Shown here piece by piece: positions 2,660 to 43,467 of a stretch of 64,000 nt of DNA. A program made the translations under genes and the position numbers. Numbering within the stretch: the stretch's first letter is position 1; the number at the start of each line of letters is the position of its first letter. Below the pieces are notes generated by a model. It was given only the letters and a program-made list of their open reading frames with translations, searched no databases and had not been told where the DNA came from. Source of the stretch: a virus; the IMG/VR virus record IMGVR_UViG_3300027905_000001, positions 15,362-79,361 of that record; one strand, 5' to 3'.

Positions 2660-2968
2660 TTAGAGTTGTTTTGCGTCTACCTTCTCCACCCAAACTATAT
2701 CCCCATTAGCATCGAACTTCAGCTCATCATCATGCCTAGCTCTAGTTTGTTCGTGGCACTTCCTGCATAGGAGTTCGAGGTTATTCCAGCTATAGCACTT
2801 CTCAGGGTTGTTAACGGTGTCCCATGCTGTTATAGGGTCCTTGTGGTGGACTTCTTCGCCTTTGGATCCGCATTGCTCACAGAGACCGAACTTAGAGGCA
2901 AAGAAAGCTTTGCGGCATTTGATCCAGGCGCTTCGTCCGTAGAATAGTTTGAGTTGGCCTTGACTCAT
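2660..2968 (-). CDS. HNH endonuclease
   Basis: HNH motif EEVHHKDP...NLELLCRKCHEQ with CxxC zinc ligands. Confidence 0.8.
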   Translation of the reverse strand: MSQGQLKLFYGRSAWIKCRKAFFASKFGLCEQCGSKGEEVHHKDPITAWDTVNNPEKCYSWNNLELLCRKCHEQTRARHDDELKFDANGDIVWVEKVDAKQL

Positions 2969-3869: not shown

Positions 3870-4769
3870 CTAGATACTATCCTCAGCAGCCTTGCGCCGG
3901 ATCTCTAAGTCAGCCTCATTAACTGCGGTCCTGCGCTCTGCAAGTTTAAGATTAGCGTCATCAACTTTGCGCCGATGCTGATCCGGAGTGAGGTCAAAGA
4001 AGTCCGCCAGCCGGTCAAGTGCCTTATGCTTGTCGTGGAACTTAATAGAGATACCATCCTTAGTCTGCCGAATCTCCTGCACCATCGAAGTGTCCACCTG
4101 GTCGCTGTTTTTGATCCTAACGAAGTTGACATCCTGCACCTGGTACTGACCGTCCGGGCCGACTACGCGCTGGCCGTCGAGATATACCCAATCCTGAGTG
4201 GTCCCGAACTCAAAGAAGTCTCCAGGATCGGACATTGCTATTTTTTCGTAGACCTCCAGTACATCGCGCTTGGTAAGAAAGATGTCCTGAGCTATATCAC
4301 CTTTCAGCCGCCGGATCTCTGCCGCAACCTTAACGTCTCTTAACATCCGGCTGCCCTGGACATGTGCGCCGGCCTTTGGACACCCTGCTTTTATTGCGGC
4401 CATCGTTGCGTTGTGATCCTTGACAAAGTGTAGCGCGAATAGCTGCTGCTTTTCTGTGAGCGGCGAACTCTCTACTATATAATGCGTCTCGCTCCCGGCT
4501 GCTTCTTCCGGCCGTTTCTTTCCCTGGTCCGTTGCCGCTTTCTTCCGGCCGGACTTCTTGTCCGTTGCAACGCTCTTCTTTTGCGTTGCATTGCGTTGCT
4601 TGCCTTGCGTTGCGTTCTGCGTTGCATCGTTGGCCGCTTCTGCTTTGGCCCAGTTCTCTCTGTTCTTCCGGCTGCGGATCGTGCCCGCGCTGATTCCGTG
4701 TTTTGCTGCAAGGTCCCGAAGCGTAATCTCTGTCGTCTCGTATTCTGCGCGTATTACTAGCCAATCCAT
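3870..4769 (-). CDS. terS: Phage terminase small subunit (Terminase_2-like) with N-terminal HTH
   Basis: HTH ITLRDLAAKHGISAGTIRSRK; LTEKQQLFALHFVKDHNATMAAIKAG...SRMLRDVKVAAEIRRL resembles TerS DNA-binding core. Confidence 0.65.
   Translation of the reverse strand: MDWLVIRAEYETTEITLRDLAAKHGISAGTIRSRKNRENWAKAEAANDATQNATQGKQRNATQKKSVATDKKSGRKKAATDQGKKRPEEAAGSETHYIVESSPLTEKQQLFALHFVKDHNATMAAIKAGCPKAGAHVQGSRMLRDVKVAAEIRRLKGDIAQDIFLTKRDVLEVYEKIAMSDPGDFFEFGTTQDWVYLDGQRVVGPDGQYQVQDVNFVRIKNSDQVDTSMVQEIRQTKDGISIKFHDKHKALDRLADFFDLTPDQHRRKVDDANLKLAERRTAVNEADLEIRRKAAEDSI
4582..4625. repeat. Tandem octamer TGCGTTGC (4 copies) inside terS, encoding an NATQ-rich linker
   Basis: Direct count in sequence. 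Confidence 0.7.
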
Positions 4770-4841: not shown

Positions 4842-4875
4842 AAGTTAAGATCTAATTTTGAAGGAGGTAAACGGC

Positions 4876-5271
4876 ATGACAAAGCTCGAAATTGCTAAAA
4901 ACATTAATGCCATCAAGGATTTAGGCCGCATTATTGCAACGAATTGGGAGATGGACTTTGTTGAAGGAGGAATCTATGACAATAAGGGCAATGTCGAAAG
5001 CTGGACTGACCGTGATAATTCAAAAGTGGCCTTTAAGCCCGAAAGCACCGGCACGATAACTTATGTCCTTCAATGCAATAAAGTCCCCTGTCACGTAGTA
5101 GACTACACTAGCACTGATGAAACTCGCGCCCTTGGCGCTACTGGCTGTGAAGATGAAGCTGAATGCCTGGTATTACCTGAAACAAAAATGATAATTACCT
5201 ACGTTTCCACTGAAGATGATTTCAACGAAATGGGATATTACTTAGTGGAAATGGAGATTGTCAATGAGTAA
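4876..5271 (+). CDS. Hypothetical protein (131 aa)
   Basis: ATG after GGAGG; track ORF 4858-5271. Confidence 0.5.
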   Translation: MTKLEIAKNINAIKDLGRIIATNWEMDFVEGGIYDNKGNVESWTDRDNSKVAFKPESTGTITYVLQCNKVPCHVVDYTSTDETRALGATGCEDEAECLVLPETKMIITYVSTEDDFNEMGYYLVEMEIVNE

Positions 5272-5869
5272 TCGCCATGGACACCCCCTTACTTCTGAAC
5301 AAAAGGGAGCGAGGGAGATTGAATATCGGAAAATGGCATTGGAATTTCATAAAGAAACAGGACGTTCGCCCCGGATGGCAGACTTACCTTTTCCTTATAA
5401 AATCTTTAAGGTTCACGACACGTGGAATGCATTTCTTGAAGATTGCGGGCTAGAGGTTAACCGTTTAACCACGGACGTTGAGAAATATTCTTTAATATTC
5501 GATTACAAGGAATTAGCTAAAAACTTAGAACGGACTCCTTACGCATTAGAATTTTATAAAAAATTTGGTTGCCAATACGCAGTCCGCAAATTATTTGGAT
5601 CATGGAATGCATTTGTTAAAGCTTGTGATCTTAAATTAAATAGATTCACAGGAGCAGAAAAAGAAGAACTTGTGGAACGCGTCTTGAAATTAGCTAAGAA
5701 ATTAGGTAAAACACCTACAACTCGTGAATTTAATGCACACGCAAAGAAAAGTAATCTATGCACGACGATGGTTATATGTCGGTATTTCGGAACATGGACG
5801 GAATGCCTTGAGTTTTGCGGGTTAGAGCCTAACCAAAATAAAAATTTTAAGCGTAGAAAGAAGGATTAG
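5264..5869 (+). CDS. Repeat protein with three W-NAF...CGLE units
   Basis: Repeats TWNAFLEDCGLE / GSWNAFVKACDL / GTWTECLEFCGLE. Confidence 0.5.
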   Translation: MSNRHGHPLTSEQKGAREIEYRKMALEFHKETGRSPRMADLPFPYKIFKVHDTWNAFLEDCGLEVNRLTTDVEKYSLIFDYKELAKNLERTPYALEFYKKFGCQYAVRKLFGSWNAFVKACDLKLNRFTGAEKEELVERVLKLAKKLGKTPTTREFNAHAKKSNLCTTMVICRYFGTWTECLEFCGLEPNQNKNFKRRKKD

Positions 5870-5871
5870 CG

Positions 5872-6036
5872 ATGGCAGAAACAACAACCGACGACCGCGA
5901 ACGCATGACACTACGCATCCCCCAGGACATTTGGCGCATGATCAAAATGGACCTGATTGACAAAAAAGAAAAGTCGGCCAATGAGCTTATCACAAACTTA
6001 ATATATGAGCACTACAAAGTACCCCGGCCGCAATAG
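5872..6036 (+). CDS. Ribbon-helix-helix (CopG/Arc-like) small DNA-binding protein (54 aa)
   Basis: MTLRIPQDIWRMIKMDL... beta-strand plus two-helix pattern; not in track (<60 aa). Confidence 0.45.
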   Translation: MAETTTDDRERMTLRIPQDIWRMIKMDLIDKKEKSANELITNLIYEHYKVPRPQ

Positions 6037-6086
6037 CTGGGGGTTTTCTTTACCTAAAAATACTTAATATTTATTGTCTTAATGCC

Positions 6087-6115
6087 TTGACACCACGACA
6101 TAAAAGATGTATTAT
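6087..6115 (+). promoter_or_regulatory. Sigma-A-type promoter (TTGACA-17-TATTAT)
   Basis: Shares CTTGACACCAYGAYATAA with the 4823 region. Confidence 0.5.
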
Positions 6116-6287
6116 TAACACATGGAAAACAGCACTCCAGCCCAATCCAGTGCAACAAACGCTTCCCCCGGCCAATTGCGGTCCGGGTCCGCCAAGAAGC
6201 CGAGAGAGAAAAGTTGACCGTGTGTCAGGGAAGAAGATTAATCCCGACAGGCTACAAAGGGAGCCGGGGAAAAAGGAGTTTTAAATT

Positions 6288-6497
6288 ATGAAACAAACTT
6301 ATTACAGCGTTGGTTATTACTCAGGAAGATCGAACAGCACTAGCACGGCGTTTTTTGATACTAAAGAGGCGGCTGAAAAATTTGCAGATCATGATTACAG
6401 GGATAACGTGGTAGCGCATCACGTGAGCAAGCCTGAGACGATTGCGAAATACGATGAGCTAGTTGCTATGACGGCGTTTGAGCTTAGAGACCGTTAG
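6288..6497 (+). CDS. Hypothetical protein
   Basis: Track ORF; AGGAG upstream. Confidence 0.5.
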   Translation: MKQTYYSVGYYSGRSNSTSTAFFDTKEAAEKFADHDYRDNVVAHHVSKPETIAKYDELVAMTAFELRDR

Positions 6498-6610
6498 GAT
6501 TTGCAGATGGCACCGGCCAGCACCCGGTGTAATGCACTAGCAGGCGTCCAAAGTCGCCGCAAATGCATCCCGACAGCTCGCAAGGAACGGGGAAAAGGAG
6601 GTCAGGACAG

Positions 6611-7057
6611 ATGCTCTATCACAGATTTACTAACTCATCAAACGTAATGTCCAACTGGGGTCACGCAATGTTTGCGGCCAACAGGGACGCGGTCGAAAAT
6701 TACGGTAGTAAAGAGTTTATCTTTAAATCATCTAGGGACAATAGCAAAACGATCAAGTCGCTCAAATCACTGATTATCAAAACTTGGAAGTACGATCAAA
6801 AAAATGGCTTTACCGGGGACTTTGGCAACGGCTGCACAGATGATTACTACTACAACGTCAAGGATAATGCAGTGGACGCTATTAGTATTTACAACAGCTT
6901 TGACCCGTCTAGCGTTGTGGAGAGCGCCGATGCTTGGGACTCCGAGCTTTATCAATGGTTTTGGGAGCGTATCGCGGAGCCTAACGGCATTATGGCAGTT
7001 ACAACTCAAGATGGGGCAATAGTATTTGATGCAGACTTAATTAAGGAGGTATGTTAA
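6611..7057 (+). CDS. Hypothetical protein
   Basis: ATG 6611 after AAAGGAGG; track ORF 6563-7057. Confidence 0.5.
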   Translation: MLYHRFTNSSNVMSNWGHAMFAANRDAVENYGSKEFIFKSSRDNSKTIKSLKSLIIKTWKYDQKNGFTGDFGNGCTDDYYYNVKDNAVDAISIYNSFDPSSVVESADAWDSELYQWFWERIAEPNGIMAVTTQDGAIVFDADLIKEVC

Positions 7058-7318
7058 ATGTCTAATGAGGATGACGTTATGTTTTTCAAAATAGCAAAGG
7101 TTAAAGCCGCTATCAGCAGGGTCCTAGACGGGTGCGTAAACGAGTTGCCGGATATCCAGTTTGGATGGAGCGGATCAGTTATCGAGGTTTATTTATCCGG
7201 CGGTAATTATCAAGTCCGCAACCTTATCGAGTCCCATTTTGTAAATAGCAGGAGGTATAAAGGCGTTACAATTACAAACAACGACACCAAAAAGCGTATC
7301 AGCTTTATTTTAAATTAA
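7058..7318 (+). CDS. Hypothetical protein
   Basis: Track ORF. Confidence 0.45.
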   Translation: MSNEDDVMFFKIAKVKAAISRVLDGCVNELPDIQFGWSGSVIEVYLSGGNYQVRNLIESHFVNSRRYKGVTITNNDTKKRISFILN

Positions 7319-7339
7319 GAAATTGAAGGAGTGTTAAAA

Positions 7340-7558
7340 ATGAAACGATTAGACATTTTTAAAAGCGAAGGTGGATACAGATTAGCATTGGGAATCTACA
7401 ACGACAGCCCCGTAATTGACAAGTCTCCTTGGTTCGAAACCAAGGAAGAGGCCGAAAAAGCAAGGCGCGAAGTCATAGAAGAAGATGAGCGAGAAGCCAA
7501 AATTGAGCAGTATATCCAAGATGGCAATATCGAGGCCCTCGAAAACATGGATAAGTAA
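7340..7558 (+). CDS. Hypothetical protein
   Basis: ATG after GAAGGAG; acidic C-terminus. Confidence 0.45.
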   Translation: MKRLDIFKSEGGYRLALGIYNDSPVIDKSPWFETKEEAEKARREVIEEDEREAKIEQYIQDGNIEALENMDK

Positions 7559-7652
7559 TTGCAGAGGATTAGGAGCCTAAAAACTCCTAATAATGCGCTA
7601 GGCAAGCGGTTCCAAGCCCGCGCCAATCGCAATTTTGAAAGGTGGAGCAATC

Positions 7653-7889
7653 ATGAAATACACCATAGCTGAATACCACGGCATAGACCGGCACCAAATG
7701 CAAGCCCATACCGAGGAAATCATTACCAAGCTTGAATTTATTCGAACAACATGCACGGATGCCGAATCGCTCGAATACACTGACGCCCAACTCGAATTTT
7801 ACCGCGAAGAACTAGCCAGTAAATCCCTGCTTATGTCATCATGGTGGGAAGTTGAGAACTACATGCGGAAAGGTAGGAAAATAGCATGA
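7653..7889 (+). CDS. Hypothetical protein
   Basis: ATG after AAAGGTGGAG. Confidence 0.45.
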   Translation: MKYTIAEYHGIDRHQMQAHTEEIITKLEFIRTTCTDAESLEYTDAQLEFYREELASKSLLMSSWWEVENYMRKGRKIA

Positions 7890-8077
7890 CCATCTACATC
7901 CATGAGTTTTACAAGGACAAGGAAAAGGCGCTCGCATTGGCTGAACTACCGGACGAACTAGATTATCACCGATTTGTCCACGGCTGTGAGCCTAAAAAGG
8001 TGAACATAGTCCCTTATTGGGCAGATTGCGACAAGTACAAGGCGAATAAGTCCACCATGACACTGTTTATTAGCTAA
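7886..8077 (+). CDS. Hypothetical small protein
   Basis: Track ORF, 4-nt overlap with upstream gene. Confidence 0.4.
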   Translation: MTIYIHEFYKDKEKALALAELPDELDYHRFVHGCEPKKVNIVPYWADCDKYKANKSTMTLFIS

Positions 8078-8157
8078 CATCAAGGCTTTTAGCCTTGGCT
8101 CAGCCGCTTTTTGAGCGGTTCAGCGAGGACTAAAAACGAATGAAAGAGGTAATTTAC

Positions 8158-9078
8158 ATGAGCATGATCAACGAACAACTAGCCCAACGATCAAAGGAAA
8201 ACATGAGTTTTTCCGACTACAAACCCGGCAGCGCAACGGCTGAATTCAACCAGGAAATAGCCAACGTCACCACGTTAGTTGAATCGGCCAAGCTCAGGGT
8301 ATCCGACGAAGGGAAAGCCAAGCTAGATCGTTTCCTAGCCTCTTACACCTCTCGTTATGCCGCATGGACCAATAAGCGCAACGCAAATGGTGCAGGACAT
8401 GTTAGTGTTATGATCGCAGGCCCAGCTAACTACAACATGAGAGCGCACGAAAAGTACATGAGCCGTGAAGGTAATCTCTGGAAAGAATACGAGGAATTCC
8501 GAAACCCTGAGTATAAAATTTCCTCCATCGTCGCAGGTGACAGAGTTATAAAATCCAATGATGTCAACGCTATTGAAAAATTGCAGGAGAAAATAGACGG
8601 ACTTGAAAAAATGCAGGAATTAATGAAAGCTTGTAACGCCATCATCCGTAAAAAGAAGCTGACCGACGAAGAGAAGATTGCTGCAATGGTAGAAGCTGGA
8701 GCCAGCGAAAAAGCCGCAAAAGAAACCTTGACCCCTAATTTTATGGGCAGAATAGGTTTTGCCTCTTATTCGCTCAGTAATAACAACGCAACGATCCGAA
8801 ACGCCAAGCAACGAATATCCCAGCTTGAGAAGATCGCTGCACGCGGCACGCAAGAGACTGTCATAGAATCAGACGCGGAGGAAACAAACGGCATACGCAT
8901 AGTTGACAATGTTGAAGCGCATCGGCTGCAAATATTCTTTAATGGCAAGCCATCGGCAGAAGTTCGAACACAGTTAAAGAAAAATGGATTTAGGTGGACG
9001 CCTAGTATTTCCGCGTGGCAGTCGTATCGAAGTGAGAGCGCAAACCGGGCAGCGCGTGAAATAGTGGCAGCAATGTAA
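8158..9078 (+). CDS. Hypothetical protein, C-terminus resembles DUF3560-like domain
   Basis: C-terminal motif LQIFFNGKPSAEVRTQLKKNGFRWTPSISAWQ; assignment from memory. Confidence 0.4.
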   Translation: MSMINEQLAQRSKENMSFSDYKPGSATAEFNQEIANVTTLVESAKLRVSDEGKAKLDRFLASYTSRYAAWTNKRNANGAGHVSVMIAGPANYNMRAHEKYMSREGNLWKEYEEFRNPEYKISSIVAGDRVIKSNDVNAIEKLQEKIDGLEKMQELMKACNAIIRKKKLTDEEKIAAMVEAGASEKAAKETLTPNFMGRIGFASYSLSNNNATIRNAKQRISQLEKIAARGTQETVIESDAEETNGIRIVDNVEAHRLQIFFNGKPSAEVRTQLKKNGFRWTPSISAWQSYRSESANRAAREIVAAM

Positions 9079-9162
9079 TTATATCGCGGGACCATCTTTG
9101 GCCCTGCTCCAAATGTCCGATTATGGGCACTTGGAGGAGAATCAAAATTTAGAGGTGATCAA

Positions 9163-9351
9163 GTGGCGGAAACGTGGTTCTCTCGACTTAAAACAGAGAT
9201 AGAAGATTCGAGAGACTTGCAAGAAATTCTTGGTGTTAAAGTTATCGAGCATCTTTTGTGGAACAATATCTCTCGCGAACAATACGAAACTCTCTCTAGC
9301 CTGCGCGTAAAAAGAATCCTGGAAAATTGGCACGAAGAATTTTTGGCTTAA
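9163..9351 (+). CDS. Hypothetical small protein
   Basis: Track ORF (GTG start). Confidence 0.35.
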   Translation: MAETWFSRLKTEIEDSRDLQEILGVKVIEHLLWNNISREQYETLSSLRVKRILENWHEEFLA

Positions 9352-9406
9352 ATCCACGCCGGACTATTCCGGTTTTTTCCCAACTAAAATTAAGGAGGAA
9401 TAACTT

Positions 9407-10021
9407 ATGTTTCATGCGTTCACGCTCGAACAAGCGAACCTCAGAGAGGTCCAAGGTTGGAAGGTCGGCCAACATGTCCAAGTCAAAGAATGGCGTGGTA
9501 CTTACGAAATCGAAGGCTACCACCAATACGGAAGGCAAAACGAGTACACCACTGTATACCTTGCCAAGCTCAAGAAAGACGGTACTAAGAGCAAATACAG
9601 CGGCGATACACCTATCGCTAACCTCATGCCATTGGGAGCGGCACAACCAACAACAGACAGCGCAGGACGAACAGCACTGCAGGCGGCACAGGAGCTATTC
9701 GGTAGCGGCTTTGCTAAACACGGATGGTATAACACGGATCGCGAATCACTGGTAAAGGTTGAGACGATCAGTAAGACAGGACGCGTCAAGGTGCAAGATA
9801 TAAGCGTCAAGGCTGGAATTACGGCACGTTCAAAGACTGTAGATGGACATAAAGTTTACAGTCAAGAAGATCGCCTGGTAAACTTTGCGGATCTCGAATA
9901 CGGTCTAAGTGGAGATATAAAAACATTCACGCCGCGCCTTTTTTGGGGTGAATGGGGCTTTTGGCATGATGGGGAAATTATCAAGGCCCCAGATATGAAG
10001 CTTACGTGGTTGCTAGATTAA
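9407..10021 (+). CDS. Hypothetical protein
   Basis: Track ORF with AGGAGG upstream. Confidence 0.5.
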   Translation: MFHAFTLEQANLREVQGWKVGQHVQVKEWRGTYEIEGYHQYGRQNEYTTVYLAKLKKDGTKSKYSGDTPIANLMPLGAAQPTTDSAGRTALQAAQELFGSGFAKHGWYNTDRESLVKVETISKTGRVKVQDISVKAGITARSKTVDGHKVYSQEDRLVNFADLEYGLSGDIKTFTPRLFWGEWGFWHDGEIIKAPDMKLTWLLD

Positions 10022-10031
10022 CATAATTTAA

Positions 10032-10055
10032 AGCCGGACATCATCCGGCTTTTTG
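10032..10055 (+). terminator. Rho-independent terminator
   Basis: Stem agccgga/tccggct, loop catca, then TTTT. Confidence 0.7.
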
Positions 10056-10059
10056 GCGT

Positions 10060-10530
10060 TCCCGTTATTATCTTTCCGGCTCCATAGGCTTATACGCCAC
10101 CCTAGCCCATGCAAGCCCTAGAACGCCGTATAAGCCCCCATAATCTCCGTGTGGTCACTATGCAACCTATCGTTATCCAAGGCCCTTATATACCGTTCTG
10201 TGTCCTATCATATCGCAAGCCCTACAAGACGTTTTAAGCCCTCGAAATATCAAAGGCATAACTATGTCAATCCCTAACTATTCAACGCCATACAGGTGCC
10301 ATTCTGCGCCTGTGATAACGCTCTGCGCCTATGTGCCGATACCCTAACGACGGCGGCAAAACGTCCTCTAATTACCTCAATTTGTCGCCTATTGTCGAAG
10401 TTCGCCTGATTTCACCCTGATTTTATGACCATATTTCGACATTCCCAAAATTCTCTCGACATTCCCAAAATATCGGTTTCTTGTAATTTTTATAAAATCG
10501 CTCCACCGAAAAAATATCCCCAGCTTGTAA
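10060..10530. other. GC-rich non-coding region with short direct repeats (ori / pac / ncRNA candidate)
   Basis: No credible ORF; repeated aagccct, ctgcgcct; exact 16-nt direct repeat tcgacattcccaaaat at 10436 and 10456. Confidence 0.4.
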
Positions 10531-10532
10531 AA

Positions 10533-10896
10533 TTATTCGTCCTCGAATCGACAACCGCGGTTACTCTTCATCATCCGATCTCTTGCCATAAACGCCATAC
10601 TGTTCTCGAACTCTTCCCATTTTCGAGCTGTCTCGTATCGCTTGTATGCACTTAGGTATTCGTCGCAATATGAAGCAGGAACATTGGCGCAGCTAGAACA
10701 ACTAGAACTAGAGCGTCCTATATCGCGATATATTCGGGGTTTGTAGCATCTGCATCGAGGCGGTTCTCTCACTAGTTGCTCCCTCCTTAATCCATAGGCA
10801 ATGGTCAACGTCATACTTCCTGCATAAGGCGCAGTTGGTTCGTTCAAGGCTTTTGTCTATTGCGCTGAATTCTTTGCAGCTTCTGTTCTCTCCCAT
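10533..10896 (-). CDS. Cys-rich hypothetical protein(s); two overlapping frames, possible frameshift
   Basis: Track ORFs 10708-10896 and 10533-10847 overlap in different frames. Confidence 0.3.
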
Positions 10897-10933
10897 AAAT
10901 TAGCCCTCATTTTAGGATAATTTTCGAACAATA

Positions 10934-11068
10934 TTAAAGCATGCTTTTTTAGTTTGAATTAAAGCATGCTTTTTTGGTTTTTGTTTATGTAATTAAGGCA
11001 TGCTTTTTCTATGTCTGAAATTAAGGCGTGCTTTTATGTACCACCATCAAGATTAAGGCATGCTTTTT
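10934..11068. repeat. Five direct copies of ATTAARGCRTGCTTTT (palindromic core AAGCATGCTT)
   Basis: Copies starting 10934, 10959, 10993, 11021, 11053, spaced 25-34 bp, in a ~440-bp intergenic region. Confidence 0.75.
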
Positions 11069-11342
11069 GAGTAAAAAAGTGAACACCCTCAATTAAGAAG
11101 GTGTTCGAGTGAGAATAGAGAAGGAGGACAAAATTAAAAGCCCTTGCGAGCTTGTCAAATATTCAAAATAAAGCCGGTTCCAGATCGTAGAACCGGATTC
11201 TCCTTCTACACACGGTAGATGAGTTAAATAAACGAAGCACCGAACGACCACGATACGTAGGTCAATTCGATGCTTCTCAATGTTATAATCATAAACCTTT
11301 TACAGCTCAAATGTGGTAATAAATCGGTAATATTCTGGTAAT

Positions 11343-11915
11343 CTATACGTATTTACTAAAATAAAGGTATCTTTGAAATAATGGCCCTAATATCTCCCAC
11401 AATACTTCAAGCGCTTCTCTGTTAATCTTCCTTAACATTTCGTTTGTGATATAAACTCTACCAACAGAATGGCGCTCGTTAAACACAATCTCAATGTTCC
11501 TCCATGTCATGACTTCAAAGTATTTAGACCTAATAACGGTTTCCTGTTCCCTCGTTAATGCCTTCAGCGCTTCATCAATCTGCTCCATCTCAAGCGTCTT
11601 AAACCTCATCTTCGACCGATCCTCGTCAATCCAAGCCTCAACTAATTCCCTCGTAACCTCTCTGCGCCCTGCTATATGCTCGGTCGGCGAAGTTGTAGTT
11701 GTTGCGTGCGGCATACCGATAATTCTACTTACGCTGTTCTCGAATAACCATAGCTCTCCCGCGCTCAATGCTTGTTCCCATACCAGGATTCTCTGCATAG
11801 TTGTCACGACTTCTGCTTTATGTTTTTTATAGAGTTTCAAGCGTTCTTCGAGTATGTTTTGGGATTCTTTTATCATTGCTATGGTTATTACCTCCTCTCT
11901 ACCGTTTTGCGCCAT
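11343..11915 (-). CDS. Putative sigma-70 region-4-like transcription regulator
   Basis: C-terminal LTREQETVIRSKYFEVMTWRNIEIVFNE HTH pattern. Confidence 0.35.
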   Translation of the reverse strand: MAQNGREEVITIAMIKESQNILEERLKLYKKHKAEVVTTMQRILVWEQALSAGELWLFENSVSRIIGMPHATTTTSPTEHIAGRREVTRELVEAWIDEDRSKMRFKTLEMEQIDEALKALTREQETVIRSKYFEVMTWRNIEIVFNERHSVGRVYITNEMLRKINREALEVLWEILGPLFQRYLYFSKYV

Positions 11916-21600: not shown

Positions 21601-22455
21601 CTAATCTTTTTTTGTCCTGTGGTCAAAATCTTTGGCAAATAATAAATGATCTACCGTCATGCCTAAAATCCTAGATACTGTAGCCTCGCCGTAATCTCCT
21701 AATCTTTCTTCAAGTGGTTTGGGGTAGTAGTTCGTCGTAAACCCCGTCAATAGATTGGCGCGATACCTTAGATCAATCAGCCGGTAATACATCGCTTGCA
21801 CCCATTCTGTGGGTTTTTCCTTGCCGACATCGTCCAAGATCAGAGCTTGAGCCTTGGCTAAAGTTTCAATCTTTGCCTCCATGCCACTTTCGTTTTTCCT
21901 GAACTGAGCATCCCTTAACTCTGCAAGTAAGTCGGCAGACGATACAAACACAACCTGCACCCCTTTATCAAGCATGTCCTTGGCGATAATGCTGGCTAAC
22001 ATCGTTTTCCCTACTCCTGGATTTCCGAGCAATAAAAACCCTTTGGCGTCCGATTCACTTTTGATTAATTCAGGCCATAGCTTTAAGTAATTAATTACAC
22101 CCTTGTGCATGTTTCGGTTTCCGTCGTTGACTTTATAATTAGCAAGGCTGTATCTGAGCTGTTGAGATGTTAGCCCGGATGATTTTAGTTTTCTGGCCGC
22201 GTTCTTCTTAATCTTACAAACACACTCCTTGTAAAGCGTTAGTCCGTATAAGTCTTTTTCATCAGTGGCAACTATCTCCCGATCTTCACAATCAGAGCAG
22301 TTATATTTCTTTTCGACAGGTTTTAAACTGTATCCAGATGTTCCAGTGTTGAAAAGGTTAAGTCTGTTCCTAACTTCTTCCTCTGAGGATTTCGGAGAGT
22401 ATGGGGTCCGTTTCCCAAGGTTTAGAATCTCCTTGATCGATTGAATTGCTTCCAG
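21601..22455 (-). CDS. DnaC/IstB-like AAA+ helicase loader; canonical start missing
   Basis: Walker A GNPGVGKT, Walker B LILDD; first ATG at 22110, but frame stays open upstream to 22477 with no ATG/GTG/TTG; AGGGAGG precedes CTG at 22455. Confidence 0.6.
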   Translation of the reverse strand: MEAIQSIKEILNLGKRTPYSPKSSEEEVRNRLNLFNTGTSGYSLKPVEKKYNCSDCEDREIVATDEKDLYGLTLYKECVCKIKKNAARKLKSSGLTSQQLRYSLANYKVNDGNRNMHKGVINYLKLWPELIKSESDAKGFLLLGNPGVGKTMLASIIAKDMLDKGVQVVFVSSADLLAELRDAQFRKNESGMEAKIETLAKAQALILDDVGKEKPTEWVQAMYYRLIDLRYRANLLTGFTTNYYPKPLEERLGDYGEATVSRILGMTVDHLLFAKDFDHRTKKD

Positions 22456-23290
22456 TTTTGTTACCTCCCTTGGCTTTTAAGTTCTTGCCCCATTTAACAC
22501 AATTTCCCAGCCACGTATTAATCTGTGATCTTGGTTTACTTTTTACATCAAGCGGCTTATCTAGTTTGTCGAAAGACCAGTCCTTAATCGCTCCCAAGAT
22601 ATCTATGGTTGGGTATCGTTCTTGAAGCTCTCGGTACATTTTCAATTCCTTCGCCCTGTCAATCGGATAATCCTTAACTTTTTCAAGTGTGCGAATTAGG
22701 TCTATTTCATCAGGCAGAAGAATGAGATCATTTTCTTTTCTTTCTTTTACTTCCTTTCCTTTACTATTCTCTTCTTTAGGGATTTCTGTAGGAAATAATC
22801 CATCTTCAAGAGGATTAATGTCTACATTAACTACAGATGGTAGGTTGTTACCGTCAACATAAACCATATTTACAGTAAAATTATCAGTTTGCTTAGGTGG
22901 AGAAATAAGTAGATATTCAGATATGAGCGTTATCTCTTTGCGTCTTTCTACAGATTTGAAGTATCTTTTTTGGATTCCTCCGCTAGTAAGTATTTCGTAT
23001 TTTAGATACAAGGATGAATTGAAAAATTCCCACTTAATGCAATCAGAAACTATCTCGGTGATAATATTAATGTCTACATTAACCTTACTGGAGAGTAGTA
23101 ATTGTTCGCGCTCTGTCCATTTATAGAAATATCCTTCCTTATATATTTTCATAAGAAGTTTGATTAAAACCGCAAATCCAGTGATCTTATGCTTTGCTTC
23201 AATAAGCAAAACTTTGTCGTCTTGGTCCATGTCAATATCGAGGGGAAAATAATCCAATCCCTCTTTTTGCGGTCTTGCCAAGTCATTCAC
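22370..23290 (-). CDS. Replication initiation / replisome-organiser protein (DnaD-like)
   Basis: N-terminal DYFPLDIDMDQDDKVLLIEAKHKITGFAVLIKLL typical of phage replisome organisers. Confidence 0.55.
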   Translation of the reverse strand: MNDLARPQKEGLDYFPLDIDMDQDDKVLLIEAKHKITGFAVLIKLLMKIYKEGYFYKWTEREQLLLSSKVNVDINIITEIVSDCIKWEFFNSSLYLKYEILTSGGIQKRYFKSVERRKEITLISEYLLISPPKQTDNFTVNMVYVDGNNLPSVVNVDINPLEDGLFPTEIPKEENSKGKEVKERKENDLILLPDEIDLIRTLEKVKDYPIDRAKELKMYRELQERYPTIDILGAIKDWSFDKLDKPLDVKSKPRSQINTWLGNCVKWGKNLKAKGGNKTGSNSIDQGDSKPWETDPILSEILRGRS

Positions 23291-23501: not shown

Positions 23502-23581
23502 TTACTTACCTCCGTTTCCTTAATCATCCTACTTATACATTATAACATATACTTGTACAAGTAACAATCAATAGGTATAAA

Positions 23582-37598: not shown

Positions 37599-37645
37599 GC
37601 AATATGTAAATTATACTTTCTTTTATGGAAATGAGGAAAATATTT

Positions 37646-37984
37646 ATGATTATCGGTATGGGCAGTAGAATTAGAGTTCTTCGACTTGAACGAGGGTTAA
37701 CACAGGACCAAATGGCATATAAACTGGACATGAATCGTGCGAATTTCTCACATTACGAAAGAGACACATCTTCCCCACCGTGCGAAGTTCTGGTCAAAAT
37801 AGCTGATATTTTAAATACAACTACAGATTTCCTTCTTGGACGCACAGATACTAATCCACCCGATGCTGCAACAATCAAACAACTACAAGGAATTAATGAA
37901 TTACCGCAAGACAAGAGAAGATTTGTAATAAATATAATAAATTCGATTATTTCAGAAATAATCGAAGAGGCTAAGGAGGAATAG
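37646..37984 (+). CDS. CI-like HTH XRE-family repressor, coupled to integrase
   Basis: RBS GAGGAAAA; VLRLERGLTQDQMAYKLDMNRANFSHYERD; stop 3 nt before integrase ATG. Confidence 0.6.
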   Translation: MIIGMGSRIRVLRLERGLTQDQMAYKLDMNRANFSHYERDTSSPPCEVLVKIADILNTTTDFLLGRTDTNPPDAATIKQLQGINELPQDKRRFVINIINSIISEIIEEAKEE

Positions 37985-37986
37985 GT

Positions 37987-39465
37987 ATGCATGGAATACT
38001 ATACCTGCGCAAAAGCAGAGAAGATGAGCAATATGAAAAAAATACTGGCGAAGATGTTCTGCAAACCCATCGCGAACGTTTGGTTATGCTCTGTAAGTCG
38101 CGGGAAATTACCTTCGACGAACGCGCAGAGGTACGAAGCGGTGATACGATCGCAGGTCGGCCTAAATTTCAGAATATACTAGATACGGATCTCCCCTCTG
38201 GTCAATACTCTTGTATCATTGTTACTGAAATTTCTCGACTTGGCAGAGGGGACATGGAGGATGCAGGAAGAATATACAAAACCATAATCCACAACGAGAT
38301 TAAGATTGTCACGCCGAATAAAATATATGATCCGTTAAACCCTTCCGATCTTCGCCAGCTAAGGTTCGAGCTATTCATGTCTCGGGAGGAATACGAAAGC
38401 ATTAAGGAAAGACTATGGAATAATAGAAATTACCGGGCAACACAAGGTTATGCCGGCAATTATATTGTCACGCTCGGTTTTCGCCAGTCCAGGGGGATAG
38501 TCGAGATAATCCCCGAAGAGGAAAAATTAGTGCTTGAAATATTTACGATGCGCTCTGAAAATTACTCCTATCAAGAAATAGCGGATTACTTTAATTCCAG
38601 AAATTTAAAGACAAAACGCGGAACAAAGTATCATGAATCTACAATATATAAGATATTAAAAAATCCCAGGTATATAGGAGTGGCTAAGTGGCAAGGCAAG
38701 GAATATATAGCTAAGCACCCTGCGATAGTCTCATTGGACCTATGGAACTCTGCGCAGGATATCAACGCTGAAAGACATCACAAGAGACGAGGGTCAAAAA
38801 ACGATAACCCTTATCTAGTAGAGCTATACTGTCGAGAATGCGGGCAAAGGATGTACGGGGAACGCTCTACCCCGCAAAGGGTAATAGATGGTGTTCGAAA
38901 GCTATATAAAAGCAGAGACATCTATATTTGTAGGGGCAGAAAAAGCATCCCTAAATGTTGGCACCACATAGGAGCCAGCGTTGTTCACTCGACCATCCTT
39001 GATGAGCTTGGGAAGATAATATCAGATCCGCAGATTTTTCTTGAGTTAGTCAACGAGAGAGAATCAAGACTTGGCGTCGATACTAATGGTTTATCAGATC
39101 AAGTGGATGAATTAAATAAGCAAGTCAAGGATAAAAACATCCTTTTGGTAAAAATAGAGAACGATTATGAAAAAGGCGACCTATCCGCTTTGCTATATAC
39201 TAAACACGTTGAAAAAATATCCAAAGAAATAGCATCTATTGAAGGTAGGATAAAAAAAATTAAGGCCGATTTATTAAAATCAGCCATTAAGATTAGTCCT
39301 CCTATGGAATTACAATCAATTTTGAAAACATTCCTAAATAACTGGAACGCCTATCCTAATAGTGACAAGAAGCTCATCATTAGATCATTTCTTCCCAGGG
39401 TTGAGGTGAACAAGCAGGGTGAATTCTTTATCGCTATTACTTTGCCTGATTCTATCGAAATTTAG
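37987..39465 (+). CDS. Large serine recombinase (phage integrase, serine type)
   Basis: N-terminal resolvase-type catalytic domain (YLRKSREDE), recombinase domain, Cys-rich zinc ribbon, C-terminal coiled coil; 492 aa. Confidence 0.8.
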   Translation: MHGILYLRKSREDEQYEKNTGEDVLQTHRERLVMLCKSREITFDERAEVRSGDTIAGRPKFQNILDTDLPSGQYSCIIVTEISRLGRGDMEDAGRIYKTIIHNEIKIVTPNKIYDPLNPSDLRQLRFELFMSREEYESIKERLWNNRNYRATQGYAGNYIVTLGFRQSRGIVEIIPEEEKLVLEIFTMRSENYSYQEIADYFNSRNLKTKRGTKYHESTIYKILKNPRYIGVAKWQGKEYIAKHPAIVSLDLWNSAQDINAERHHKRRGSKNDNPYLVELYCRECGQRMYGERSTPQRVIDGVRKLYKSRDIYICRGRKSIPKCWHHIGASVVHSTILDELGKIISDPQIFLELVNERESRLGVDTNGLSDQVDELNKQVKDKNILLVKIENDYEKGDLSALLYTKHVEKISKEIASIEGRIKKIKADLLKSAIKISPPMELQSILKTFLNNWNAYPNSDKKLIIRSFLPRVEVNKQGEFFIAITLPDSIEI

Positions 39466-39515
39466 CAAACGGGAAACCTTCCGACAATTTCAAAATAGGG
39501 AAGGTTTCCCGTTTG
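39466..39515 (+). terminator. 17-bp perfect inverted repeat after integrase stop (terminator or att-site candidate)
   Basis: caaacgggaaaccttcc / ggaaggtttcccgtttg around a 16-nt loop. Confidence 0.5.
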
Positions 39516-39520
39516 CGGTT

Positions 39521-39784
39521 TTATATCTTTCCTTCATATAATAAGGATTTCAAGAGTTCTATTCCGTCATTGAATCCCTGCTTATATGTATTTTCCAGAA
39601 GAGCATCCACTCTTGATGTTGATAATTCTTCATAGCGATCAAAAATATTTCTTTCCTTACCCAGTAATCTTATTATGTCAACGCTCAAGGAAATGGATTC
39701 TTTTATCCACTCACTGTAATCAGTTGTTTCTTTTGTTTTTTGATAAGCAACGCCAAAGATTCTTTCCGGCATCAGCTTGTCCAT
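39521..39784 (-). CDS. Hypothetical protein
   Basis: Track ORF. Confidence 0.3.
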   Translation of the reverse strand: MDKLMPERIFGVAYQKTKETTDYSEWIKESISLSVDIIRLLGKERNIFDRYEELSTSRVDALLENTYKQGFNDGIELLKSLLYEGKI

Positions 39785-40194
39785 GATAATATCAAGTATT
39801 TTTTCAGTCGGAATATTTTTTTCAATATCTATATCCTCATCTCCTGCCTGAATTTATGTTTTACCAGTCTCTATATACTAGAACGTGTGTTCTTAATTTT
39901 CAAGGGGTAATTTGTCGCAAAAGAAATAAATCGTTTCTCTTCCCCTTTCTCTCGCTACCCGTAGGAACAAAGTCCTACAATCAGTCCTAGATATAATTCA
40001 GAATATTTATTTAAGTTATTGACAGTATACGCTATAACGTTTGTCGAAATCGCGTGAAATAAAGGAGGCCAAATGTGAATATTTTGTGATTATAAATTAT
40101 ACTTAAGTCTACATATTATAATACCTGCTACATTTTTGTGTTAGCAGGATTAATCCTATCCTCTGTGGAAGTATTTTCCTATGGTGGTGAGGCG

Positions 40195-40416
40195 ATGGAT
40201 TTAGAAGATAAGTTAAAGGATAACAAAATACAATACATACTAGACAAGCGTGATATGTCGCAAAAAGACCTTGCCGCAACGCTCGGGTGGTGGCCGAGTG
40301 ACATAAGCGACATCGTTAACGGTAAGGTTAAGCGCCTTACGCTCATTCGCGCTTCGATGATATCCGTTGCTCTCGGGTATTCGGTTGAGTATATTTGGCC
40401 TACTTTATTCAAGTAG
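40195..40416 (+). CDS. HTH XRE-like regulator
   Basis: ATG after GGTGGTGAGG; MSQKDLAATLGWWPSDISDIVNGK. Confidence 0.5.
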   Translation: MDLEDKLKDNKIQYILDKRDMSQKDLAATLGWWPSDISDIVNGKVKRLTLIRASMISVALGYSVEYIWPTLFK

Positions 40417-40431
40417 GCCAAATATTTTTTT
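40396..40431 (+). terminator. Rho-independent terminator overlapping gene 3' end
   Basis: 9-bp stem tggcctact/agtaggcca then T-run. Confidence 0.65.
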
Positions 40432-40553
40432 ATATTTTTTTAGTCATAAAATTAGACTTTCGTCTATATACTTTATCACACCCAGTAAGCCACCGTCACA
40501 CCACGTCTTACACTATACTACGCCAGTCAGACAAAATTTTGAGAGGTGAGAAT

Positions 40554-40760
40554 GTGAAGAAAAGAAGAACTTTTTGGGACGGAGATGATCTTTGCTCAAA
40601 GCTAGACGCAATACCAGAAAATGAACTAAGTACCATAATCCGCATGGCACTACGAGCATGGTTTAAGATCGACAGCAAGCCCGAACTAACCGTTACCGAC
40701 GCAAGGCAGATAGCGCAGGAGCTGGTAAGGCAACGCAAAGTTGAAAGGAGCGAACGCTAA
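40554..40760 (+). CDS. Ribbon-helix-helix-like small protein
   Basis: GTG start after GAGAGGTGAG; RRTFWDGDDL...STIIRMALRAWF. Confidence 0.4.
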   Translation: MKKRRTFWDGDDLCSKLDAIPENELSTIIRMALRAWFKIDSKPELTVTDARQIAQELVRQRKVERSER

Positions 40761-40921
40761 TGTTCTGGAAGAAATCCATTAAAGCCTCCAAACTCTCAGG
40801 GCTTATCAAGGAAATAGCTAAGGCGGCATCATTAGTACCTTATGGGGATGGCGCGCTGGACTTAGGTTGGGAGGAACTAACCGTCAGTGATCTACTCGAA
40901 TGGATGGAGGAAAGTTTATAG
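40760..40921 (+). CDS. Hypothetical small protein (53 aa)
   Basis: TAATG coupling to upstream gene; not in track. Confidence 0.35.
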   Translation: MFWKKSIKASKLSGLIKEIAKAASLVPYGDGALDLGWEELTVSDLLEWMEESL

Positions 40922-40938
40922 GAAGTGAGGTTGAAATA

Positions 40939-41166
40939 ATGGACATAACTAAAATCCAAAAAATCGTTCGCAAGGCTATCAAGGACTACGCCATTACCGC
41001 AAAGTACGATGAGGAAATTCTAGTATCATTTCTCAGCGTGGATATTTTCCGGGAGATCAACGAGGATTCCCCGGCACCTCTCTCGGATCCCAAGGCTCCC
41101 CCTCGCCGCAATACTAACCAGAATGCATTAGGTCTGGTAAATCACGAAGCAGGTGAAACGCCATGA
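40939..41166 (+). CDS. Hypothetical small protein
   Basis: ATG after GTGAGG. Confidence 0.4.
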   Translation: MDITKIQKIVRKAIKDYAITAKYDEEILVSFLSVDIFREINEDSPAPLSDPKAPPRRNTNQNALGLVNHEAGETP

Positions 41167-42491
41167 GTGAAAAATCATCGTCCGTAAAGCCCGACCTGAT
41201 CGGCTTGACATCCTCTACTCTGGTCAAACTTGGACGCTTTGCCCTACGTCATATCGGCAGTCCCAACAACTCCTATGCGAACAAGATAATGCTGAACTGG
41301 AAACGCAATGACATATGCACCGAAACCAAAGAGCGAGGCAAGGATTACACAGAGAAGAAATACCCTACGCTAGTGGAAAAGACAATGAAGGGTCATAATC
41401 GAGTACTTAGATACAAGATACCCACCGGTCTAAATCCGCAGAAAGTCATGAAATCCCTCTACGACATCGAGTTCGATCTCAAGTCAGAAGTCCTATTCAA
41501 GCGACTTGAGAACGATCCCAAAGCGCACTTCTCACTCACTATCTTATCCGGCAAACTGTTAGACATTATCAACTACTCCAACGAGGCCAGTATTACTCCA
41601 GATGGCAAGGAGTTAAGCAAAGGTCTATGGATACCTCTAGGGTGGTCAAGAAGGGGCTTGGAACAACTTAATTTAGCCTCTAGCAACAGCCCTCATCTTA
41701 TGATCGGAGGGGCTACAGGAGGCGGCAAGAGCATCCTTGGCAGGCTTATCCTTGCTACCCTCCATATCCGCTATAACCGTGATGAATGCCGACTATGGCT
41801 CTGTGACCTTAAACATGGCAACGGCACAGCAAGGCTAGGGAAAAACCCTCTCCTTGTAGATAGGACTATTTCTGATCCGGGCGAAGCAGAACAAATGATG
41901 GACGATCTCTCTGTGATTATTGGCGAGCGATATAATTTATTTAAGGAGTATGAGTGCGACGATTTACAGGCGTTTAACGAGGAATATCCAAGATTGAGAT
42001 TGCCGCGCATTGTGGTTTATGTGGATGAATTAACCAAACTTGAGGGCAAGGAGTTCTCCAGGGCTCGTGAAAAGATGACTAAAGTCACGGGGGAATCCAG
42101 GGGTGCAGGAGTGCATGTTATTATCTCTTGTCACAGGCCCACAGCTAACCTTGTGTCCGGCACGATGAAGAACAATATCTCTGCCGTTGTCGCGTTTAAT
42201 TGCAACGCTGTATCGGCTCGTGTGTTGCTTGGAGAAGATCCGGAGGATTACAAGGCAGCCAGCATGATTGATCCAGATATCGAAGGTCGAGCATTGTTTA
42301 AATTTAAAGATGAGGTATTGCTGCAGGTCCCCTACATCGACAACCATGCAATCAAGTCCCTTATGGCCAACTATCAAAAAGCGATAATTAAAGGTAAGGT
42401 CGAGCCAGTGATACAGGCTGTTATTTCCACTAGGGTGGTTGAGCACTCAGTCGGGCACTCACTCGGTCATACTATTGAGCACCCCCAGTGA
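41163..42491 (+). CDS. FtsK/SpoIIIE-family DNA translocase-like ATPase
   Basis: Walker A GGATGGGKS, Walker B VVYVDE. Confidence 0.75.
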   Translation: MSEKSSSVKPDLIGLTSSTLVKLGRFALRHIGSPNNSYANKIMLNWKRNDICTETKERGKDYTEKKYPTLVEKTMKGHNRVLRYKIPTGLNPQKVMKSLYDIEFDLKSEVLFKRLENDPKAHFSLTILSGKLLDIINYSNEASITPDGKELSKGLWIPLGWSRRGLEQLNLASSNSPHLMIGGATGGGKSILGRLILATLHIRYNRDECRLWLCDLKHGNGTARLGKNPLLVDRTISDPGEAEQMMDDLSVIIGERYNLFKEYECDDLQAFNEEYPRLRLPRIVVYVDELTKLEGKEFSRAREKMTKVTGESRGAGVHVIISCHRPTANLVSGTMKNNISAVVAFNCNAVSARVLLGEDPEDYKAASMIDPDIEGRALFKFKDEVLLQVPYIDNHAIKSLMANYQKAIIKGKVEPVIQAVISTRVVEHSVGHSLGHTIEHPQ

Positions 42492-42614
42492 TTGTACTCA
42501 ACGATTCAATGCGCTTTATAGGCTCCTTTGGTCATGCCGTGCGGTCCGTAAAGTGCTTTATTATCCTTACTTTTTTATTTTGTATTTATTTTATATTTTT
42601 GCGAGGTGAAAATT

Positions 42615-43244
42615 GTGAACTTAGTGGCATATGGCAAGCAACGAGACGAACGAATTATGGGGCTAGTAGGGCTTGGGACAGCCTTTACGCGAAGCCAAAT
42701 AGAGCGAGTTATATTTAAGGGAAGTAAGCGTAAGGCTCAGACTAGACTGCAGGTGCTATCCGATTCAGGGCGACTAAAAAAGATTATCCGCAGTCCCCAC
42801 GAACCAGCCATCTATTGCCTCAAAAAACCCCGAAATATCGATCATTATTTACTTATCAATGAAATCTATTGTGCCGTAATGTCTCAGAAAAAGTCTTGGC
42901 ATATCGTCAAGTGGCAATGGTCATATCCAATTATGGAAGGTAAGATTTGGGCAGACGCAATGGTTGATATTTACGACCAACTCAATAAGCGTAGGCATGT
43001 TATATTTGTTGAGGTTGAGCGTTACGCAGACCGTAAGTTCGAGAAGGATAAAAAGTATTCAGCCATTACCAGCGCGAACTGGACGAAAGAAGAGTGGGCG
43101 ATTAAGGAGCCTACAAGGATATTGTTCCCGGCAATCCTAGTTGTCACCGAATGCAAATTAGAGGTCAAAAGCGAGTTGGATTTCTTTGTTGCCACGATGG
43201 ACCAAGTCAAAAAAGACATTTACTCTATTATCTTAAGGAGGTAA
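42615..43244 (+). CDS. Replication-relaxation family protein (putative)
   Basis: GTG after GAGGTGA; N-terminal winged-helix-like segment; assignment from memory. Confidence 0.4.
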   Translation: MNLVAYGKQRDERIMGLVGLGTAFTRSQIERVIFKGSKRKAQTRLQVLSDSGRLKKIIRSPHEPAIYCLKKPRNIDHYLLINEIYCAVMSQKKSWHIVKWQWSYPIMEGKIWADAMVDIYDQLNKRRHVIFVEVERYADRKFEKDKKYSAITSANWTKEEWAIKEPTRILFPAILVVTECKLEVKSELDFFVATMDQVKKDIYSIILRR

Positions 43245-43248
43245 CACC

Positions 43249-43467
43249 ATGGGTAAACTAGGAAAAGTGACCACAAAGGCCACCTATGGAATCCTGAATC
43301 TGGCGATGAAACCTATTTACGATCAGATGAAAAAAGAGAGAAAAGAAGAAGTTAAAAGATGGAACAAATCGCTAGATATAGCTTCTCAGGATGCAATGGC
43401 CGAGGCTAGATATTTTGAAGTAAGGCAGCCGTTTGATTCGATTATCCACAAGCACCCATTGTGGTAG
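43249..43467 (+). CDS. Hypothetical small protein
   Basis: Track ORF. Confidence 0.4.
   Translation: MGKLGKVTTKATYGILNLAMKPIYDQMKKERKEEVKRWNKSLDIASQDAMAEARYFEVRQPFDSIIHKHPLW

Follow-up and report, generated by a model that had tools for sequence, protein, structure and literature searches.

At positions 10056-10532 of a 64,000-nucleotide stretch of viral DNA (IMG/VR record IMGVR_UViG_3300027905_000001, positions 15,362 to 79,361; hereafter the window), we found a 477-bp non-coding element that carries short repeats in a common helical phase. We tentatively interpret this element, which is specific to one lineage and sits at a convergent gene junction, as helically phased DNA that binds protein or serves as an insulator; it may include host Spo0A boxes. 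It is a real and statistically unusual piece of orphan non-coding DNA. The window itself belongs to a phage or prophage with a Desulfosporosinus host. The element and its bordering terminator are:

10056-10532, no strand assigned: 477-bp element, non-coding, G-depleted and with helically phased repeats, as delimited by open reading frame (ORF), composition, protein-search and periodicity analyses
10030-10052, no strand assigned: bidirectional hairpin terminator with 9-bp perfect arms, closing the rightward accessory operon (4858-10021)

The element is bordered by this hairpin at the left and by the stop codon (10533) of a small leftward ORF at the right. The hairpin is strong on the plus strand, with a T-run reaching approximately position 10057, and weaker on the minus strand, where the T-tail is poor. 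The initial annotation had described approximately 470 bp without a credible ORF lying between a plus-strand terminator and a minus-strand early block, and had called it more GC-rich than its flanks. Its non-coding status was confirmed: no ORF longer than 43 amino acids is present in 10056-10532, codon (three-base) periodicity is 0.12-0.7 compared with a window median of 2.03 (10th percentile 0.78), and the concatenated six-frame translation had no match at E≤10 among 5.8 billion proteins. A pseudogene was rejected on these grounds, both the six-frame protein search and the codon periodicity being negative. A mobile element was likewise rejected, given that no convincing terminal inverted repeats and no second copy were found in the window, and no tRNA or tmRNA genes were found in the window either. 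The plus-strand terminator also proved to be in place, but the right-hand neighbour is a pair of cysteine-rich ORFs (10533-10896, minus strand) as opposed to a generic early gene. GC-richness was not borne out: the GC content of 0.451 (73rd percentile) compares with a window mean of 0.4285, and the flanks are similar (0.44-0.54 at the left and 0.46-0.475 in the adjacent right gene). The real compositional oddity is a depletion of G on the plus strand, with 142 C versus 73 G (C 30%, G 15%) and a GC skew of -0.32, at approximately the 3rd percentile of the window.

Four repeat pairs (10113/10132, 10217/10236, 10303/10322 and 10436/10456) each have their copies 19-20 bp apart, approximately two helical turns, with conserved cores and unconserved spacers. 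This phasing is a new finding beyond the earlier description, which had noted repeated AAGCCCT and CTGCGCCT words as well as an exact 16-nucleotide direct repeat at 10436 and 10456, all of them present as described. The repeats and associated features are:

10111-10145, plus strand: composite 35-bp repeat, copy 1, GCAAGCCCTA followed 19 bp on by AAGCCCC (half-sites 10113 and 10132)
10215-10249, plus strand: composite 35-bp repeat, copy 2, GCAAGCCCTA followed 19 bp on by AAGCCCT (half-sites 10217 and 10236)
10303-10333, plus strand: TCTGCGCCTGTG and TCTGCGCCTATG, starts 19 bp apart, spacer unconserved
10436-10471, plus strand: two exact 16-mers TCGACATTCCCAAAAT, starts 20 bp apart, reading ATTTTGGGAATGTCGA on the minus strand
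10087-10136, no strand assigned: imperfect palindrome with 19-nucleotide arms, 79% complementary, overlapping the first AAGCCC pair
10350-10430, no strand assigned: predicted intrinsic-curvature peak, the highest of the 64 kb window, with its maximum at approximately 10371 (wedge model, the value being approximate)
10467-10532, no strand assigned: AT-richer right end (GC approximately 0.32), with AAAATATC...CTTGTAA at 10467 and 10511, 75% identical

The 16-mer occurs exactly twice and nowhere else in the window, even when 3 mismatches are allowed, and the pair is identical at 16/16 core positions and at 0/4 spacer positions. The sequence TCTGCGCCTRTG is found at 10303 and 10322, and TCGCCT copies related to this pair lie at 10385 and 10402. 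AAGCCCT is present at 10113, 10217 and 10236, AAGCCCC at 10132 and the variant AAGGCCC at 10179; the AAGCCC core thus has 4 copies compared with 0.12 expected (P ~8e-6). Both AAGCCC pairs are held within the 35-bp composite units, which are 104 bp apart (autocorrelation at lag 104, z 4.2). A further sequence, CCTGATTT, occurs twice within the predicted curvature peak, at 10405 and 10416 (11 bp apart). In terms of repeated k-mers, the element is at approximately the 98th percentile of the window.

The autocorrelation of the element peaks at lags of 10-11 (z ~4) and 19-21, and the signal at these lags is at the 99.8th-99.97th percentile among all 477-bp segments of the 64 kb. All twelve top-scoring periodicity segments of the 64 kb overlap the element, which scores 0.09 compared with a maximum of 0.053 in approximately 300 kb of other fetched loci. 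Patches rich in C/G alternate with patches rich in A/T at a period of 9.6-10.0 bp, reached by 0 of 200 shuffles. This periodicity is carried by C and by A/T alike, suggesting that it is a property of the duplex. The phase-locked repeats, the alternation of strong and weak base pairs and the predicted bend together argue for a function at the duplex level.

A DNA-level cis element is plausible in light of the conserved cores, the 19-20 bp phase and the strongest helical periodicity of the window. To this extent the initial annotation, which had proposed a cis element such as a packaging site, replication origin or structured non-coding RNA, remains sound, while none of the three specific assignments has gained support. 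At the junction, where the rightward accessory operon meets the leftward late activator and cysteine-rich genes A and B, an array of predicted protein-binding sites would lie on one face of the helix and act as DNA. One or more DNA-binding proteins would bind cooperatively and bend or wrap the element. The resulting complex would either insulate the two converging transcription units or control a weak leftward promoter-like site (10448-10420), the role of the element being that of insulator, roadblock or promoter control region. Candidate binders are host Spo0A, proposed because TGTCGAA boxes occur in and beside the 16-mer repeat, the adjacent Cys4 proteins, and a ribbon-helix-helix (RHH) protein. 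The genes concerned are:

11343-11915, leftward: ArpU/sigma-like late activator
10708-10896, minus strand: small Cys-rich ORF A, 62 amino acids, orthologue of the gene after the late activator in all relatives
10533-10847, minus strand: small Cys-rich ORF B, 79-104 amino acids depending on the start codon (10533-10772 or 10533-10847), unique to the present phage
5872-6036: RHH protein

A number of points weigh against this interpretation. Only AAGCCC exceeds two copies, each site pair consisting of two, and the curvature figure is approximate. The cluster of Spo0A boxes was noticed post hoc, and with 17 exact boxes in total the chance of a box pair within 70 bp somewhere in the window is estimated at ~0.26. 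Furthermore, the element has no homologue in phage or plasmid records, IMG/VR, JGI metagenomes, GTDB genomes or 22 syntenic relatives; relatives thus exist without it, and the phage may be able to do without it, or it may have arisen as a recombination by-product.

The Spo0A boxes and the promoter-like site are:

10393-10399, plus strand: exact match to the Spo0A-box consensus TGTCGAA
10435-10441, minus strand: exact Spo0A box in copy 1 of the 16-mer
10455-10461, minus strand: 6/7 match to the Spo0A box in copy 2 of the 16-mer
10420-10448, minus strand: promoter-like TTGGGA-17-TAAAAT (9/12), a consensus-level match with its -35 inside copy 1 of the 16-mer
3741, 10393, 10435, 16635, 22312, 40042 and 50708: exact Spo0A boxes (heptamer TGTCGAA) in non-coding DNA

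Two exact boxes and one 6/7 box therefore lie inside 70 bp, confined to the right-hand third of the element. Across the window, exact TGTCGAA occurs 17 times compared with 7.45 expected, a count reached by 0 of 100 shuffles, and 7 of the 17 are in non-coding DNA, though this makes up 13% of the window (P=0.004). For the boxes in the element we estimate P ~0.007, uncorrected for their post hoc choice. Promoter-like sites in the element are not in excess (4 found, 4.6 expected from shuffled sequence); the spacer of the site at 10448-10420 holds one Spo0A box. The sequence pattern of clustered putative 0A boxes (TGNCGAA) near a promoter-like site is thus present, with modest statistical support.

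In the Bacillus phages phi29 and Nf, such boxes allow both promoters and replication to be repressed by Spo0A (PMC2731898), and 0A-box target DNA is also bound by the Spo0A of clostridia (PMC3485338). The present case resembles phi29 and Nf in that the host is a spore-former and its Spo0A boxes are clustered in non-coding control DNA of the phage. It differs in that this phage is temperate-like and unrelated to phi29, and its putative boxes are in the right-hand third only. It is conceivable, if improbable, that the right-hand third is a Spo0A-sensing switch, in which tandem 0A boxes in the 16-mer repeat and an inverted box 42 bp away, on curved phased DNA, would allow Spo0A, the regulator that governs host sporulation, to switch a leftward promoter on or off, or to act as a roadblock, where the late-regulator genes meet the accessory module. 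Under the same improbable scheme, the window-wide excess of exact 0A boxes, with its bias to intergenic DNA, would be part of one regulon. We keep the probability of such a switch low because the cluster was noticed post hoc.

Searches for the element by megablast and blastn against phage records and by blastn against plasmids returned nothing, and exact-pattern scans for the 16-mer or the 16-mer pair gave 9 single chance matches in IMG/VR and none in GTDB genomes. Relatives were fetched via the flanking proteins (a 204-amino-acid protein, the late activator, ORF B, a DUF3560 protein and the small terminase TerS); searches with ORF B or TerS gave none. In total, 22 syntenic loci were obtained from IMG/VR, JGI metagenomes and GTDB metagenome-assembled genomes (Bacillota, including a Desulfosporosinus), with 74-82% identity in the activator or 74-77% in the 204-amino-acid protein. 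Loci extending past the activator have the gene order activator, leader with terminator, and one small Cys-rich gene. In most of these, a single bidirectional terminator follows, along with an opposite-strand accessory module converging on it; four loci (L012, L024, L020 and L031) instead have same-strand genes after the Cys gene. The accessory module of the relatives includes RHH proteins, the DUF3560 protein and the 204-amino-acid protein, and terS is located beyond it where the locus is long enough (L022, L023, L033). The last accessory-module gene at the junction encodes a tyrosine recombinase of approximately 296 amino acids in L021 (4926-5816, minus strand), L033 (5960-6853, minus strand) and L026 (near 4340). 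In these closest syntenic relatives, the recombinase sits exactly where the window has ORF B and the 477-bp orphan. No DNA or translated similarity to 10022-10707 was found in any of the 22 syntenic loci; ORF B, the 477 bp and the terminator are therefore a lineage-specific replacement at the junction. As the relatives manage with one bidirectional terminator, the element is not needed by the phage family overall.

The replacement could also have left a scar without function. In such a scenario, which we consider unlikely, ORF B, the 477 bp and the terminator would have replaced, by illegitimate recombination, the end of the accessory module that carries the tyrosine recombinase, the non-coding part being left-over DNA and its repeats due to local slippage. 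It would account for the recombinase (with or without a 90-amino-acid gene) and the single terminator found at this place in L033, L021 and L026, for the orphan status of both the element and gene B, and for a base composition that resembles that of the minus-strand genes of the present phage. However, neither residual codon periodicity nor protein similarity is present in any frame, the mismatches between repeat copies all fall in spacers, and a single phase is common to all four pairs. The helical periodicity, unsurpassed in the approximately 360 kb examined, is not predicted by slippage alone.

Two other known types of site gained no support. An attP site of a tyrosine integrase has no adjacent integrase gene, a serine integrase (37987-39465) being the only recombinase found. 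No tyrosine recombinase was detected in the Logan gene calls with Pfam (1-17.6 kb) or among larger ORFs scanned elsewhere, smaller ORFs beyond 17.6 kb not all having been scanned. A partition centromere (parC/parS) is at odds with heterogeneous repeats and with the lack of a Par ATPase among the genes called in 1-17.6 kb, Alp/ParM being seen only in the unrelated loci L035 and L036.

The relatives also bear on a role at the transcript level. Tracts in an analogous position, after the 204-amino-acid protein gene and the next RHH gene, are present in L001 (6835-6975), L027 (3240-3470) and L029 (800-955). These have 7-11% G on the sense strand, a skew of -0.40 to -0.55 and a 9-10-nucleotide periodicity, without sequence similarity to the element; a weak set of words that the element has in common with the L027 and L029 promoter region (ATTCCC...CTTGTAA...ATCGCT) did not reach significance when aligned locally. 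Their G depletion and periodicity at this position also count in favour of the protein-binding interpretation. It is possible, though doubtful, that the element is a Rho-loading (rut-like) back-up terminator, whereby Rho would bind the C-rich, G-poor and weakly structured read-through RNA and halt antisense entry into the Cys genes and the late activator. Regularly spaced C residues in a tract with more C than G are a feature of rut sites. The element shares this likeness through its C-rich, G-poor transcript (C 30%, G 15% over 477 nucleotides) with regularly spaced C, and through its location directly downstream of the operon's intrinsic terminator. In addition, the composition recurs in the three relatives, where the tracts are G-poorer still and their C is periodic at approximately 10 nucleotides. 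It is unlike rut tracts in following a strong intrinsic terminator, hence little read-through is expected, and in its length, since 477 nucleotides is far longer than a rut site. The exact 16-mer pair and the conserved-core repeats are unnecessary for rut function, and the periodicity is also found in A/T and G, suggesting a duplex property. As a separate observation, the L001, L027 and L029 tracts end in a consensus-like promoter (TTGACT-17-TACAAT in L027 and L029, TTGACA-17-TATACT in L001).

On the minus strand, no terminator is found from the stop codon of ORF B, which abuts the element, to position 10052, so that transcription of B probably runs on through the element as a 3' tail. A minus-strand non-coding RNA or functional long 3' untranslated region, initiated either at the promoter of the two Cys genes or at the site 10448-10420 and ending at the hairpin (10052-10030), would fit this arrangement, and the minus strand is G-rich, similar to the sense strand of the neighbouring genes. 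The 9/12 promoter-like site is present, and the minus strand of 10020-10290 folds with z = -4.3, terminator hairpin included. With 10056-10415, where the hairpin is left out, z is -2.1 on the minus strand versus -1.95 on the plus strand, hence the strands are alike; for the whole element, z is -2.9 and -3.0 on the two strands, with ill-defined ensembles. The minimum free energy structure has an ensemble frequency of approximately 0 and is not the same as the centroid, direct repeats outweigh inverted ones, the promoter-like match is no better than chance, and the minus-strand terminator has a poor U-tail. A covariance-model scan of 10056-10532 gave no Rfam family at E≤10, the only matches nearby being one at E 6.9 (the terminator hairpin) and one at E 0.25 (11073-11176, outside the element). 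The structured RNA suggested by the initial annotation thus found no backing, and we regard an RNA function of this kind as having little likelihood. An RNA-level protein-binding motif, based on the AGGGCUU and UAGGG repeats, was considered and dropped.

In the relatives, a conserved 40-nucleotide leader, ATATGCAGGGTGATCCGTTACCCRYCTAAAGTACGGAAG, followed by a terminator hairpin, was observed between the activator and the small Cys gene (L013 at approximately 2230-2275, L014 at approximately 1245-1290 and L016 at approximately 4600-4640). This suggests an attenuator or riboswitch-like element, without an Rfam match; an Rfam scan of seven related loci yielded nothing useful.

Direct repeats 19-20 bp apart, a curved segment and an AT-richer end are also reminiscent of iteron-type origins in plasmids and phages (lambda ori; P1, F and R6K), where short direct repeats in the same orientation recur at a spacing of approximately two turns (19-22 bp) on bent DNA with an AT-richer flank. 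An accessory origin of this type, serving the adjacent rightward module, is nonetheless very improbable. Iteron origins have at least 4 copies of one iteron beside an initiator gene and a clear unwinding element, whereas the present element has several two-copy motifs, lacks an initiator gene nearby and has an AT-richer end of only moderate instability. No iteron of approximately 17-22 bp is present in at least 3 good copies: there are two copies of the 16-mer and two of a 12-mer, and only the 6-7-bp AAGCCCY has 4-5. Helix stability at 10430-10520 (GC approximately 0.32) is -71.5 to -72.8 kcal per 60 bp, which is moderately unstable but falls short of the least stable 5% of the window (95th percentile -70.3) and of its least stable sites (-61 to -65); these minima lie outside the element. 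No DnaA box was found in the element at up to 1 mismatch, and relatives with the same module do not carry the element.

A neighbouring gene (8140-9078, plus strand) matches phrog_19458, annotated as 'primase', which would favour an origin. However, its homologues carry DUF3560 and no primase domain was detected by Pfam or NCBIfam. The AlphaFold model of the protein (predicted local distance difference test, pLDDT, 84) consists of long helices and a small C-terminal alpha/beta domain, and has no neighbour in the PDB (best E 0.5). The 'primase' label is therefore unsupported and unreliable. In L035 and L036, a homologue of this protein is found beside an Alp/ParM-like actin gene. The replication genes proper are 11-13 kb from the element:

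22370-23290: Lin1244_N replisome organizer
21601-22110: IstB/DnaC-like loader

Phages of this type usually keep their origin inside the replisome-organizer gene. The organizer gene here has internal repeats of its own, with an exact 18-nucleotide direct repeat, ATTAATGTCTACATTAAC, at 22814 and 23066 and a (TTTTC)n tract at 22731-22777, and very low helix stability was observed nearby (23111 and 23521-23541). The region 22731-23083 is a better candidate phage origin than the element. In summary, the origin proposed by the initial annotation is not upheld, there being no multi-copy iteron, no strong AT-rich unwinding element and no adjacent initiator or primase gene.

Phased repeats and bent DNA also characterize TerS-binding sites, SPP1 pacL and the lambda cosB R sites among them. 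A pac or cos site recognized in packaging, which the small terminase would bind and wrap, would explain the phased repeats and predicted bend of the element, and many Bacillota siphoviruses have their cos or pac in the interval from late activator to terS, within which the element is located. The likeness to SPP1 pacL/pacR and lambda cosB R1-R3 extends to several short repeated boxes on bent DNA, phased for wrapping by an oligomer. The absence of the element from L033 does not count against such a site, because the TerS proteins of the two phages are unrelated; no close TerS relatives were found by which co-variation of the site could be followed. The known sites, in contrast, are in or beside terS, while the element is 5.3 kb from it across an opposite-strand module:

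3870-4769, minus strand: terS (Terminase_2)
2660-2968, minus strand: HNH gene, with TerL just left of the window

Terminase_2 is a family which we take to include SPP1 G1P, whose pac site is located at or within terS. In the present terS gene, we observed internal tandem repeats in the 5' third (4495-4627), consisting of (TTGCG)n and two copies of CCGGCCGCTTCTT, and this region is itself a candidate pac site. With terS at this distance and carrying its own tandem repeats, the packaging site put forward by the initial annotation is unsupported, and we judge it highly unlikely. In L034 (168-6612), a leftward extension of the same phage, terS is parted from terL by nine small genes, among which are an HNH endonuclease gene and a PBSX_XtrA-like ORF, an unusual packaging layout.

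Over 17.6 kb, the window matches a Logan contig of the peat metagenome run SRR6195974 at 100% identity, and Candidatus Desulfosporosinus infrequens has a hypothetical protein identical to a neighbouring one. Exact-protein searches recovered this phage alone, in two runs that belong to a single project. ORFs A and B are overlapping, out-of-frame paralogues, and no homologue of ORF B besides itself was found among 5.8 billion proteins. The Cys-rich family has the pattern C-x14-C-x2-C-x7/8-C with a C-terminal RMMxxNR-like motif, and trails the ArpU/sigma-like activator in the relatives read downstream (L012-L025, L031-L033). Just upstream of Cys gene A, five direct copies of AAAGCATGCYTTAAT were observed on the minus strand at 10933-11066, 25-34 bp apart and AT-rich (GC 0.25-0.30), the last of which overlaps a promoter-like -35. 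This array outscores the 477-bp element by k-mer repeat score, and the relatives have only approximately 150 bp at its position, without such repeats. Between the late activator and the array are three or four terminator-like hairpins (11081-11256).

The leftward early block contains SbcC-like, RecT-like, methyltransferase, replisome organizer and loader genes, and tail genes are located at 51-63 kb. Inside the gene for a 1041-amino-acid tail protein with immunoglobulin (Ig) domains, a 63-bp tandem repeat is present at 61800-61960 (2.6 copies, 76% matches). A plus-strand block at 37625-45492, on the strand opposite to the phage genes, comprises a helix-turn-helix repressor-like gene, a large serine recombinase, an FtsK/SpoIIIE-like ATPase and a Replic_Relax protein, and resembles a nested integrative mobilizable element or, alternatively, a lysogeny module of an unusual kind. 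The recombinase is:

37987-39465: serine integrase

The general significance of the element is at present limited, as it is an orphan in one phage lineage. Several corrections follow from the analysis: the element is C-rich and G-poor as opposed to GC-rich, the 'primase' label of the nearby gene is unreliable, and better candidates for the origin and the pac site lie elsewhere. Should a protein complex indeed form on the phased repeats, the element would exemplify the insulation or regulation of two converging gene modules in a mosaic phage. If Spo0A binds, a phage of an environmentally important spore-forming sulfate reducer would sense the state of its host, and a Spo0A switch, if true, would tie phage development to host sporulation, as in phi29 and Nf, in an unrelated, integrase-carrying phage of Clostridia.

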